Source of the DNA: Escherichia coli
Lineage (GTDB): Bacteria; Pseudomonadota; Gammaproteobacteria; Enterobacterales; Enterobacteriaceae
Strand: one strand, 5' to 3'
Assembly: GCF_003991155.1 (NCBI RefSeq)
Contig: NZ_CP031293.1
DNA: 64,000 nucleotides
Shown: positions 54,101 to 56,656 of the stretch, one piece after another
Numbering within the stretch: position 1 is the stretch's first letter
Layout: the number at the start of each line of letters is the position of its first letter
Position numbers: made by a program

Positions 54101-56656
54101 GGATTTCGTCGATATCGATCTCGATGACGTGATGCTGCACAGCGAAGTTAACCTGCCGATTGATTTCCTCGTTAACCAGACGCTGACGCTGGGTACGGAG
54201 TGGAATCAGCAGCGGATGAAGGATTTAAGTTCCAACACCCAGGCGCTCACTGGGACGAATACCGGCGGTGCTATTGATGGTGTGAGTGCCACCGACCGTA
54301 GCCCGTATTCAAAAGCAGAAATTTTCTCGCTATTTGCCGAAAACAATATGGAGCTGACTGACAGCACCATCGTAACGCCGGGGCTGCGTTTCGATCATCA
54401 CAGCATTGTTGGCAATAACTGGAGTCCGGCTCTAAACATATCGCAAGGTTTAGGCGATGACTTCACGCTGAAAATGGGCATTGCCCGTGCTTATAAAGCG
54501 CCGAGTCTGTACCAGACTAACCCAAACTACATTCTCTACAGTAAAGGTCAGGGCTGCTATGCCAGCGCGGGCGGCTGCTATCTGCAAGGTAATGATGACC
54601 TGAAAGCGGAAACCAGCATCAACAAAGAGATTGGTCTGGAGTTCAAACGCGACGGCTGGCTGGCGGGCGTCACCTGGTTCCGCAACGATTATCGCAATAA
54701 GATTGAAGCGGGCTATGTGGCTGTAGGGCAAAACGTAGTCGGCACCGATCTCTATCAGTGGGATAACGTACCGAAAGCGGTGGTTGAAGGTCTGGAAGGA
54801 TCGTTAAACGTACCGGTTAGCGAAACGGTGATGTGGACCAATAACATCACTTATATGCTGAAGAGTGAAAACAAAACCACGGGCGACCGTTTGTCGATCA
54901 TCCCGGAGTATACGTTGAACTCAACGCTGAGCTGGCAGGCACGGGAAGATTTGTCGATGCAAACGACCTTCACCTGGTACGGCAAGCAGCAGCCGAAGAA
55001 GTACAACTATAAAGGTCAGCCAGCGGTTGGCCCGGAAACCAAAGAAATCAGTCCTTACAGCATTGTGGGTCTGAGCGCGACCTGGGATGTGACGAAGAAT
55101 GTCAGTCTGACCGGCGGCGTGGACAACCTGTTCGACAAACGTTTGTGGCGTGCGGGTAATGCCCAGACCACGGGCGATCTGGCAGGGGCCAACTATATCG
55201 CCGGTGCCGGTGCGTATACCTATAACGAGCCGGGACGTACGTGGTATATGAGCGTAAACACTCACTTCTGATGCTAACGCTTCCTCCCCCGATATTTGGG
55301 GGAGGAATAATATAGTTGACATGAAAACTACGCATACCGCCCTCCCCTTTGTAGGACATACGCTGCATTTTGTTGAGTTTGATCCGGCGAGTTTTTGTGA
55401 GCAGGATTTACTCTGGCTGCCACACTACGCGCAACTGCAACACGCTGGACGTAAACGTAAAACAGAGCATTTAGCCGGACGGATCGCTGCAGTTTATGCG
55501 CTGCGGGAATATGGCTATAAATGTGTGCCCGCAATCGGCGAGCTACGCCAACCTGTGTGGCCTGCGGGTGTATACGGCAGCATTAGTCACTGTGGGACTA
55601 CGGCATTAGCCGTGGTTTCCCGTCAACCGATTGGCATTGATATCGAAGAGATTTTCTCTGTACAAACCGCAAGAGAATTGACAGACAACATTATTACACC
55701 AGCAGAACACGAGCGACTCGCAGAATGCGGTTTAACCTTTTCTCTGGCGCTGACACTGGCATTTTCCGCCAAAGAAAGCGCATTTAAGGCAAGCAAGATA
55801 CAGGCCGCTCAAGGTTTTCTGGATTATCAGATAATTAGCTGGAATAAACAGCAGATCATCATTCGACTAGAGGATGAGCAGTTTGCTGTGCACTGGCAGA
55901 TAAAAGAAAAAATAGTCATAACGCTGTGCCAACACGATTAATTGACAACATCTGGTACGATTCGCCCGCAGCCATCACTGACCACGGGCGAAAGTGTAAA
56001 GCAGGTGCCTTACCATCCTGACCTGACAACCGGATATGCGGGGATTACTCCCCGCACAACGGCTACTTCTTCGGTTCGTAAGCGAGAACAGCCTTAAACT
56101 CAATATTACGTTCCTTCACCGTAAACTCACACAGCGAGTCGCCGACAAGAAGCGTAAATCCCAGCACCGTTAAACACAGCACTATGACTGCCACAAGGGC
56201 ATATTTCGTCAGCATGTTTATATTGCCTCCATGCGAAGAAGGGACTACCATCCAAATTGTCTGGTTTGGAGTGGCGGCCCCAGGGTTGATAGAAATATCG
56301 TCCTGGGGCTTCATCTTTCCAGACCTCAGAGTTAACCTGAAACCGGAAAGCTTCAGGCACCCGCCGTTATCTTACGCTTCCTCAGCAAAATAGCTGTTTA
56401 TTTATACAGTGAATCCTGTTTCGGACTTCTCACTCCCCATTTGATCAACTGAAGCTGAGCCCGTTTTTTCTGCATGCCTCAATCGTCAAAATTCTTCGCC
56501 ACCAGCCAGCTGTGCCATAACTTGCCACATTGAAAAAGTAGCTAAATTGCTTCACTCACAATCAGTTCACCATCACCAAAAAAAGAAATATTCCAGAACT
56601 TCCGCATCTCGCCCAGTCGCTCCCACTTCTATACTGAATAGAAAACGCCAACATAA

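Follow-up and report, generated by a model that had tools for sequence, protein, structure and literature searches.

The hokE/sokE toxin-antitoxin locus of Escherichia coli in its IS186-free form

Introduction

The mechanistic model for toxin-antitoxin loci of the hok type derives from work on plasmid R1, whose hok/sok (parB) system shares with the chromosomal hokE locus a Hok/Gef toxin, end-pairing of the mRNA through the tac and fbi elements, the alternative stems formed by ucb, SD and dcb, a GC-rich hairpin at the 3' end of the processed transcript and a Sok RNA encoded in cis on the opposite strand, with a promoter located within the leader. In R1, mutants of the mok start codon lose toxicity, and A106G, which equals the GGGG found in hokE in place of the R1 mok SD GAGG, is a loss-of-function change. 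On the chromosome of E. coli K-12, hokC/mokC/sokC (gef) and hokB/mokB/sokB belong to the same Rfam leader family as hokE (118 and 110 bits, respectively) and carry the same 3' hairpin.

Overexpression of the HokE coding sequence has been described as toxic and the literature groups hokE with the SOS-induced type I toxins. Like hokE, tisB/istR-1, dinQ/agrB and symE/symR carry a LexA box at the toxin promoter and a separate antisense RNA promoter without one, whereas their toxin families and RNA mechanisms are unrelated to those of hokE. Post-segregational killing (PSK) was reported to be absent with IS-free chromosomal hokA and hokC and with K-12 hokB, and one other paper termed the ECOR hok loci active. 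PSK tests found in the literature covered hokA, hokB and hokC, with none found for an IS-free hokE locus. Here, we describe hokE/sokE in a 64-kb stretch of E. coli DNA, hereafter the window.

Identity and Genomic Context of the Locus

The toxin gene and its neighbours were assigned as follows.

55321-55941: entD, neighbour of hokE
56666-57784: ybdK, neighbour of hokE
56063-56215, minus strand: hokE coding sequence, 50-aa membrane toxin, ATG at 56215
56226-56230, minus strand: strong SD of hokE itself, GGAGG, 10 nt 5' of the AUG
56077-56080, minus strand: TACG motif at Tyr46 (codon TAC, 56078-56080)

The original prediction of a hokE locus with an intact toxin reading frame was confirmed by protein, RNA and DNA comparisons. 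HokE matched the Pfam family PF01848 (HOK_GEF) with 34 bits against a cutoff of 22, and the covariance-model search proposed with the prediction returned a full-length match to Rfam RF01794 at 56207-56362 on the minus, hok-sense strand (78.9 bits, gathering score 59, E=1.7e-16). The region was 100% identical to that of E. coli 2016C-3878, where the coding sequence is annotated as hokE (WP_000956465.1) and encodes the same protein. Neither a transposase ORF nor an IS element was detected in the entD-ybdK interval from the ORF listing and the annotated relative.

In comparison with K-12 MG1655 hokE (b4415) and sokE (b4835), the locus occupies the common position entD-hokE-ybdK with about 96% DNA identity, and the two HokE proteins, both of 50 aa, differ at one residue (V8A). 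The leader, sokE, the sokE promoter hexamers, the LexA box core and the TACG site are common to both, whereas in the Sok-target region the window leader departs from K-12 by 3 substitutions and two single-base indels (+1/-1), and only K-12 carries IS186B in the 3' hairpin loop, parting fbi from the mRNA body. With respect to R1, hokE lacks a canonical mok start, has the SD GGGG instead of GAGG, bears an upstream LexA box and is chromosomal. HokE was about 41% identical to a sampled plasmid Hok protein of the R1 family; a blastn search of the locus against plasmids returned only chromosomal hokE misfiled as plasmid, and plasmid hok, too diverged at the DNA level, was therefore reached by tblastn. 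The locus is very probably the chromosomal hokE/sokE module of E. coli, a type I toxin-antitoxin system, present here as a single copy without an IS. It is already known and RefSeq-annotated, and it is ordinary because it represents the common E. coli form without the IS186 of K-12.

Polymorphic codons among the E. coli hokE alleles comprised 10 synonymous and 4 non-synonymous ones, with pN/pS values of 0-0.17 within E. coli and 0.21-0.29 against Klebsiella, and the toxin ORF was intact in every allele compared. The codon changes indicate that purifying selection acts on the toxin ORF. In K-12, A-to-I editing by TadA at codon 46 of hokE, which converts Tyr to Cys, has been reported (PMC5630033).

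Structure of the hokE mRNA

The following elements were located in the predicted transcript.

55998-56362, minus strand: predicted full-length hokE mRNA, about 365 nt, with its 5' end at 56362, position 1 of the Rfam model
56355-56362, minus strand: tac element GGGUGCCU, mRNA nt 1-8
56003-56010, minus strand: fbi AGGCACCU, the element for fold-back inhibition, 53 nt past the stop codon
56302-56309, minus strand: ucb/anti-SD GCCCCAGG, mRNA nt 54-61
56241-56281, minus strand: SD-like GGGG (56278-56281) and Sok-target hairpin, closed by dcb GUCCC (56241-56245), from the Rfam alignment and a constrained fold
56038-56055, minus strand: GC-rich 3' hairpin GCGGGG-AGUAAU-CCCCGC, from the fold, 8 nt past the stop of hokE

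The 3' end of the mRNA was placed just past fbi by analogy with R1; this position is uncertain and the transcript may reach a hairpin at 55961-55992. The full-length RNA showed a minimum free energy (MFE) of -147.7 kcal/mol (z=-6.2), and 0 of 100 shuffled sequences folded as well. Both in the MFE and in the centroid structure nt 1-8 paired with nt 353-360 through 8 contiguous base pairs, corresponding to the tac/fbi interaction. This pairing covaries across four homolog types, in which fbi lies 47 to 56 nt after the stop codon: compensatory changes were observed in plasmid hok (GGGUGUCUG/CAGACACCC) and in the Klebsiella homolog (GGGUGCU/AGCACCC), and hokB has the matching pairing GGGUGCC/GGCACCC.

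In the leader, ucb pairs with CCUGGGGC (nt 79-86) in the closed form and with the 5' GGG.GC in the open form. The SD and dcb also covary, as the GAGG to GGGG change in the hokE SD is matched by CCUC to UCCC in dcb. Constrained folds returned a free energy difference (open minus closed) of +1.0 kcal/mol for the window, of -2.6 to -1.0 kcal/mol for the other hokE alleles and of -0.1 to +1.6 kcal/mol for other members of the family (hokB, hokC and plasmid hok). A leader locked in the closed form was considered and rejected, since the two conformers are isoenergetic and dcb carries the compensating U to C change. Constrained folding was preferred to threading the Rfam consensus structure, as the threaded sequence reached only -12.6 kcal/mol and lost 10 non-canonical pairs owing to register slips in the covariance-model alignment.

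The 3' hairpin at 56038-56055, by analogy with R1, appears to be the stem that terminates the hok mRNA once it has been processed (truncated), and counterpart hairpins were found in hokB, plasmid hok and Klebsiella. The defining features of the locus, namely the tac/fbi end-pairing, the 3' hairpin that serves as IS186 target and the LexA box described below, had gone unmentioned in the original prediction.

The Antisense RNA SokE

Two features on the opposite strand define the antisense RNA.

56259-56318, plus strand: sokE, 60 nt, with a single-stranded 5' tail of 10 nt followed by a hairpin and a U-rich tail
56223-56251, plus strand: putative sokE promoter, -35 TTGCCT (56223-56228), 17-bp spacer, -10 TACCAT (56246-56251), read from the sequence

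A sok-like antisense RNA had been expected over the leader on the plus strand, and homology to K-12 sokE supports its presence: the window sequence aligns to the curated MG1655 sokE (b4835, 607733-607792) with 3 substitutions and 2 single-base indels. Since the Rfam 'sok' model also matches the hok-sense strand, a match to this model is by itself no proof of an antisense RNA. The predicted SokE fold had an energy of -24.8 kcal/mol (z=-3.0), and the curated 5' end of the RNA lies 7 nt 3' of the -10 box.

The absence of a sok-like promoter and terminator had been named as evidence that would count against the locus. The promoter hexamers were invariant in the allele alignment, matching the consensus at 8 of 12 positions, which is under the scan threshold, and a simple sigma-70/terminator scan detected nothing at the window locus; the same scan also missed the curated K-12 sokE and is thus uninformative on sokE.

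The plus strand also contains an ORF of 69 aa at 56184-56393, annotated by PGAP as 'hypothetical protein', and this might in principle be a genuine gene antisense to hokE, as PGAP reports it intact in some strains (WP_009008364.1, WP_071550428.1). However, the frame is shifted or interrupted by an internal stop in BW25113 (K-12), O157, 2016C-3878, UTME-3 and W60, the product has no match in Pfam or NCBIfam, and the ORF lies across sokE and the hok leader, for both of which RNA function accounts for the conservation. A protein-coding role is barely credible.

Leader Reading Frames and Translation of the Toxin

The region upstream of the toxin contains the following potential translation signals.

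56216-56360, minus strand: the two leader frames, one extending hokE in frame to 56314 and the other of 77 aa (56127-56360), open but not genes
56249-56251, minus strand: in-frame AUG (mRNA nt 112) that precedes the AUG of hokE by 12 codons

The coordinates originally predicted for the two frames were reproduced exactly, the first spanning 56063-56314 on the minus strand (83 aa, the final 50 of which are HokE) and the second spanning 56127-56360 on the minus strand (77 aa, beginning with GTG). The proposal that these frames cover a mok-like coupling ORF did not hold, as both frame and peptide differ between alleles. In favour of either ORF as a real coupling gene, both frames remain open along the entire leader in K-12 as in the window, and the K-12 annotation presents mokC and mokA as hokC and hokA extended in frame. 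However, the frame of the ATG at 56314 (mRNA nt 49) with respect to hokE varies between alleles (0, 1 or 2), giving an ORF of 83, 62, 22 or 17 aa, while single-base indels scramble the peptides of both leader ORFs. Their start codons are also poorly placed for ribosome binding: the GTG at 56360, being mRNA nt 3, has no space ahead of it for a ribosome-binding site, the ATG at 56314 directly adjoins GGAAAG without SD spacing, and neither lies at SD+8, the start position of hokB, hokC and Klebsiella. Beyond the Hok part, neither ORF has a match in Pfam or NCBIfam, the MG1655 annotation contains no mokE and literature searches on mokE returned nothing relevant. A coupling gene in either frame is thus highly improbable.

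At the canonical mok site itself (SD plus about 8 nt) an AUG, GUG or UUG was absent in 8 of the 8 E. coli hokE alleles examined, whereas a canonical mok start is present in the Klebsiella hokE-like locus and in hokC and hokB, where GAGG is followed by an AUG 7-8 nt on, which shares the frame of hok in mokC but not in mokB. A mok frame, intended as an SD, a start codon about 8 nt on, overlap with hok and coupled translation, was not found in these E. coli hokE alleles. Because of the missing canonical start, the translation-coupling step of R1 cannot apply as such to hokE, and toxin translation would therefore begin either at the SD and AUG of hokE itself or at the in-frame AUG 12 codons upstream. 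The latter (56249-56251) is the sole conserved upstream start codon and is in frame 0 in 8 of 8 E. coli alleles; it lacks an SD, occupies the same bases as the sokE -10 box and is not in frame in Klebsiella, so that its conservation may be owed to the promoter.

The missing mok start might alternatively mean that IS-free hokE is a silent relic, in which HokE is never translated natively and the IS186 state is inconsequential. The non-toxic mok start-codon mutants of R1 agree with this explanation, as do the description of chromosomal hok loci as inactive in PSK assays and the pairing of the hokE AUG within a local hairpin in both predicted conformers. On the other hand, the purifying selection on an always intact ORF (10 synonymous and 4 non-synonymous codons, pN/pS of 0.2-0.3 against Klebsiella), the conservation of the bistable leader, the tac/fbi pairing, the sokE promoter and the LexA box, and the strong SD of hokE 10 nt ahead of its AUG all argue against it, and we consider a relic somewhat unlikely. 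The absence of a mok start in a module whose toxin is nevertheless under purifying selection constitutes a small point on the route by which HokE is translated.

The Candidate hokE Promoter and the LexA Box

Upstream of the predicted mRNA start the following elements were found.

56392-56411, minus strand: LexA (SOS) box CACTGTATAAATAAACAGCT, with the CTG-N10-CAG core CTGTATAAATAAACAG at 56394-56409
56368-56373, minus strand: candidate hokE -10 hexamer TAAGAT, 5 nt 5' of the predicted +1, proposed from sequence

The LexA core lies at -47 to -32 relative to the predicted start of the hokE mRNA and was invariant in 8 of 8 E. coli hokE alleles; the -10 hexamer was likewise invariant in the alignment. 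The pattern CTGT-N8-ACAG occurred only once in the whole window, at this box, and a search with the 20-mer LexA consensus allowing up to 3 mismatches gave no match. By sequence comparison the LexA box was absent from the Klebsiella homolog, hokB and hokC. In the literature, hokE is listed with a LexA box of heterology index 4.9, and K-12 hokE, which is the IS186 allele, showed a 0.47-fold value with AZT in RNA-seq, i.e., it was not induced.

What the locus is, which sequence and structural elements it contains, how it compares with the IS-bearing allele and how frequent each state is among genomes (given below) were observed directly. Combined with the R1 paradigm, from which mRNA processing, decay induced by Sok, the route of translation and control by LexA in this strain are extrapolated, these observations suggest the following scheme. 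A LexA-box-controlled promoter would direct synthesis of the hokE mRNA of about 365 nt from the minus strand, and the full-length transcript would be inert, with tac paired to fbi in the 3' UTR and ucb also burying the SD-like GGGG. Trimming by 3' exonucleases back to the GC hairpin past the stop would remove fbi, whereupon the leader may flip to the nearly isoenergetic open form, with the tac/ucb stem and the SD/dcb hairpin. The 60-nt SokE, presumably made constitutively from the plus strand within the leader, would pair with the Sok-target hairpin region and lead to decay by RNase III, as in R1. When SokE becomes limiting, HokE would be made and would harm the inner membrane, possibly with Tyr46 recoded to Cys by TadA.

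IS186 Insertion and Distribution of the Alleles

Alignment with K-12 placed a 1,337-bp IS186 at window positions 56041-56052 with a 12-bp target duplication GGGATTACTCCC, and in the MG1655 annotation IS186B occupies 608007-609351, starting 18 bp past the hokE stop. As stated in the original prediction, IS186 adjoins hokE in K-12 and is absent here. The K-12 insertion falls in the loop of the GC-rich 3' hairpin, removes the 3' arm of the hairpin and shifts fbi 1.3 kb away. IS186 prefers targets of the form GGGG-N6-CCCC, as described in published work on the element, and the window retains this target empty at 56040-56053 (GGGGATTACTCCCC). Strain 1070/13 carries IS186 in the hokE hairpin in the opposite orientation, and K-12 hokC has an IS186 at the equivalent hairpin position.

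Among 5,426 complete E. coli genomes, the hokE 3' site was uninterrupted in 3,646 (about two-thirds, each having at least one such copy), and the K-12 IS186 junction was present in 1,873 (at least a third). The description of the window locus as 'undisturbed' is thus correct in that it is IS-free, and it does not mark a special allele, this being the majority state.

Later papers attribute the finding of the IS186 disruption of K-12 hokE to Pedersen and Gerdes (1999), and the IS-free state of hokE has been in the literature since that year. Papers citing that work disagree on whether IS-free chromosomal loci are 'active'. As a discovery the locus carries little weight, since hokE/sokE is in RefSeq, the IS186 disruption is known and IS-free alleles are the majority. 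A caution nevertheless applies to conclusions drawn from K-12, where hokE was found inactive and not SOS-induced, as they come from an allele whose mRNA 3' end has been destroyed by IS186.

On a more speculative note, E. coli hokE might represent a branch of the Hok family that naturally lacks mok and is under LexA control, with translation of the toxin beginning at its own SD or, to give a 62-aa form, at the in-frame AUG at 56251, and with SokE acting mainly through mRNA decay. The IS-free alleles would then be SOS-inducible, and the IS186 allele of K-12, on which almost every hokE experiment has been performed, deprived of the 3' hairpin and fbi, would for this reason look non-inducible and inactive. 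Taken as a whole we regard this proposal as unlikely and put it forward only tentatively.

Finally, two tandem hokE units occur in about 46% of the complete E. coli genomes, an approximate value as the count of tandem junctions includes multi-piece joins.

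Identification of the hokE locus

An ORF listing recovered both reading frames of the original prediction exactly as described, and the intact 50-aa HokE toxin was recognized by Pfam HOK_GEF (34 bits vs a cutoff of 22). Over 55300-56700 the sequence matches E. coli 2016C-3878 at 100% identity; in that strain the CDS carries the annotation hokE (WP_000956465.1) and lies between entD and ybdK. The covariance-model search returned Rfam RF01794 with 78.9 bits (gathering score 59, E=1.7e-16), and no IS was found between entD and ybdK in the window. The assignment to hokE was correct, and the locus is the already known, annotated hokE/sokE in its common IS-free form.

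Features of the hokE region in the window
55321-55941: entD
56063-56314 (-): 83-aa ORF, whose C-terminal 50 aa are HokE (ATG start at 56215)
56127-56360 (-): 77-aa ORF, start codon GTG
56207-56362 (-): RF01794 match
56223-56228 (+): sokE promoter -35, TTGCCT, followed by a 17-bp spacer
56246-56251 (+): sokE promoter -10, TACCAT, ending 7 nt before the RNA 5' end
56259-56318 (+): sokE, by homology to the curated K-12 ncRNA b4835
56392-56411 (-): LexA box CACTGTATAAATAAACAGCT, -47 to -32 of the predicted start
56666-57784: ybdK

IS186 insertion and frequency of the IS-free state

Both statements of the original prediction, that an IS186 copy lies beside hokE in K-12 and that none is present here, were verified from the K-12 annotation and by alignment. 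Between ybdK and entD, MG1655 is annotated as follows:
607733-607792: sokE
607836-607988: hokE
608007-609351: IS186B

Aligned with the window, a K-12 chromosome contains a 1,337-bp insertion bounded by inverted terminal repeats (ATAAGCGCTAACTTAAGGGTTG...). The insertion duplicated 12 bp of target, GGGATTACTCCC, corresponding to window 56041-56052; the window itself has the empty target GGGGATTACTCCCC at 56040-56053. This target is not arbitrary: it forms the loop of a GC-rich hairpin in the predicted fold (GCGGGG-AGUAAU-CCCCGC) starting 8 nt past the hokE stop. K-12 hokC carries IS186A in the equivalent hairpin, and in strain 1070/13 (L012 1218-2330) an IS186/IS421-family element occupies the same hokE hairpin in the orientation opposite to K-12; the hokE site was therefore struck independently. 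Strain W60 (L004 147-2955) has IS186 and, in addition, an IS150 within the hokE leader, the IS150 at about window 56281-56286.

Three diagnostic queries were then run against 5,426 complete E. coli genomes. With a 100-bp probe that had the target site at its centre, 3,646 genomes showed no interruption; the K-12-type hokE/IS186 junction occurred in 1,873, and a probe for the junction of two tandem hokE units matched approximately 2,498. The suggestion of an undisturbed locus thus holds in that no IS is present, but the IS-free state is common and not unusual. The hok loci of K-12 have been described as having lost activity through IS elements, through point mutation or through rearrangement, a finding credited to Pedersen and Gerdes (1999), and the literature reports intact hok systems in other strains.

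Tandem hokE/sokE units occur in many E. coli, with a LexA box, sokE and fbi present in every unit, and are known from O157:H7 (L002 2599-3254) and ST131 (L013 800-1454), with a unit of ~503 bp spanning about window 55962-56430. The window holds one unit, and this single-copy, IS-free arrangement accounts for roughly a fifth of genomes, as estimated from an evenly spaced listing in which 6 of 30 rows were full-length, single-piece matches. The window leader resembles a mosaic of the two tandem copy types. In the ST131 genome compared (L013 1-690) an SDR-family oxidoreductase replaces entD beside the entD-side hokE copy, and the left flank of the hokE region therefore differs in this lineage.

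Predicted architecture of the hokE mRNA

The predicted 5' end of the minus-strand transcript is 56362, position 1 of the RF01794 model. Nucleotides 1-365 (56362-55998) fold with -147.7 kcal/mol (z=-6.2 vs shuffles), and both the MFE and centroid structures pair nt 1-8 (GGGUGCCU) with nt 353-360 (AGGCACCU, window 56003-56010). In this modelled structure the pairing is that of tac and fbi, the 5' and 3' end elements whose fold-back defines hok mRNAs (PMC9841398). All IS-free homologs examined show complementarity between the two ends, placed 47-56 nt past the stop codon; the IS186-disrupted alleles have lost it. The pairing in hokB is the same (GGGUGCC/GGCACCC), whereas a plasmid hok (GGGUGUCUG/CAGACACCC) and the Klebsiella hokE-like locus (GGGUGCU/AGCACCC) show compensatory changes.

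In the predicted closed form, the ucb element GCCCCAGG (56302-56309) pairs with CCUGGGGC, burying the SD-like GGGG. Constrained folding placed the open form, with 5' GGG.GC paired to GCCCC plus the SD/dcb hairpin GGGGC...GUCCC, within 1 kcal/mol of the closed one, and the two forms are likewise close in energy in hokB, hokC and the plasmid hok. The possibility that a GAGG to GGGG change locks the leader closed was rejected on this near-equality. Folded alone, the leader forms a hairpin at its 5' end between tac and the adjoining downstream sequence, in agreement with the metastable co-transcriptional 5' structure of plasmid R1 (PMC9841398).

The sokE antisense RNA

The Rfam family named 'sok antitoxin' matches the hok-sense strand and ends at the hok AUG in 7/7 loci tested, as in plasmid hok (L005 356-513(+)) and two further loci (L007 602-754(-) and L008 367-518(-)). 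RF01794 models the hok mRNA leader and alone does not demonstrate an antisense gene; the strand of its match should not be taken as that of Sok. The expected plus-strand antisense RNA overlapping the leader is instead supported by the putative b4835 homolog, which differs from the curated RNA by three substitutions and two single-base indels. Both promoter hexamers are invariant in a four-sequence alignment, and the predicted fold of the RNA (-24.8 kcal/mol, z=-3.0) is a hairpin preceded by 10 free nt at the 5' end and followed by a U-rich tail. A generic promoter/terminator scan returned nothing at the window sokE and likewise nothing at curated K-12 sokE, so its silence does not count against the antisense gene.

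Across alleles the leader varies most at the top of the Sok-target hairpin, in its loop and upper stem (window 56252-56269), with tops CCAAAC-CAGACAAUUUGG, CCAAACCCGAACAAUUUGG, CCGAGCCCCAACAACUCGG and CCCAAACCUGAACAAUUUGG. The tops differ even between two tandem copies of one genome, where SokE cross-talk might be limited.

Upstream reading frames

In hokC and hokB the AUG of mok, the coupling reading frame, lies 7-8 nt past a GAGG SD, and in the Klebsiella hokE-like locus a 67-aa in-frame ORF likewise begins canonically, at an AUG 8 nt past GAGG. Eight E. coli hokE alleles were examined (those of the window, K-12, UTME-3 and 1070/13, plus two copies each from O157 and ST131); all have GGGG in place of GAGG, and no AUG, GUG or UUG stands at the mok start position. 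In the K-12 annotation mokC and mokA share the frame of their hok genes and mokB does not; MG1655 has no mokE annotation.

The proposal that the long ORFs cover a mok-like frame was not borne out. The initiation codon of the 83-aa ORF, the AUG at mRNA nt 49, occupies frame 0, 1 or 2 with respect to hokE depending on the allele, yielding ORFs of 83, 62, 22 or 17 aa. The leader is 146, 147 or 148 nt long, and this variation, together with a +1/-1 indel pair in the window, alters the peptide in both open frames; searches of Pfam and NCBIfam gave no match outside the Hok part for either ORF. Both were rejected as mok or as genes on these grounds; they are frames that happen to be open within a structured leader RNA. 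The sole conserved upstream start is an AUG at 56249-56251, 12 codons before the hokE start in the same frame. It is probably kept because of the sokE promoter, since it lacks an SD, coincides with the -10 box and is out of frame in Klebsiella.

PGAP calls a plus-strand 'hypothetical protein' antisense to the leader (window 56184-56452 (+)), which carries a frameshift or internal stop in most strains, is called intact in a few and has no family match. It is probably spurious, and the hok/sok RNA elements would account for its apparent conservation.

Functionality and regulation of the IS-free locus

The evidence for a functional toxin from IS-free hokE points both ways. In favour, all alleles retain an intact toxin ORF, and this ORF shows purifying selection (10 synonymous and 4 non-synonymous polymorphic codons among E. 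coli alleles; pN/pS of 0.21-0.29 vs Klebsiella). The RNA switch has also been conserved, changes in it being compensated; hokE is preceded by a strong SD (GGAGG), and overexpressed HokE is toxic according to the literature. However, mok start-codon mutants of R1 lose toxicity, and IS-free hokA and hokC and K-12 hokB gave no killing in post-segregational killing tests.

The CTG-N10-CAG core of the LexA box is invariant in 8/8 E. coli hokE alleles, whereas the Klebsiella homolog, hokB and hokC lack it. The literature counts hokE among the SOS toxins (heterology index 4.9), and AZT did not induce hokE in K-12, whose allele carries IS186. A CTG-N10-CAG motif (CTGCAATAAAAAGCAG) also lies upstream of a plasmid hok promoter (L005 about 292-307, -64 of the mRNA start), and could be a chance occurrence or a LexA-like site. 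The window hokE contains the TACG motif at Tyr46, a reported TadA editing site at which Tyr is recoded to Cys. Neither this motif nor the LexA box figured in the original prediction.

Other features of the window

The fepA-entD spacer (55272-55320) is only about 50 bp, vs about 175 bp in K-12 and O157, whose longer spacers contain a match to the Rfam ES036 (CssrF) sRNA (40.5 bits); the window lacks this match. A weak Hammerhead_II match at 60562-60677 (-) (22.8 bits vs a gathering score of 37, E=0.83) is most likely due to chance.
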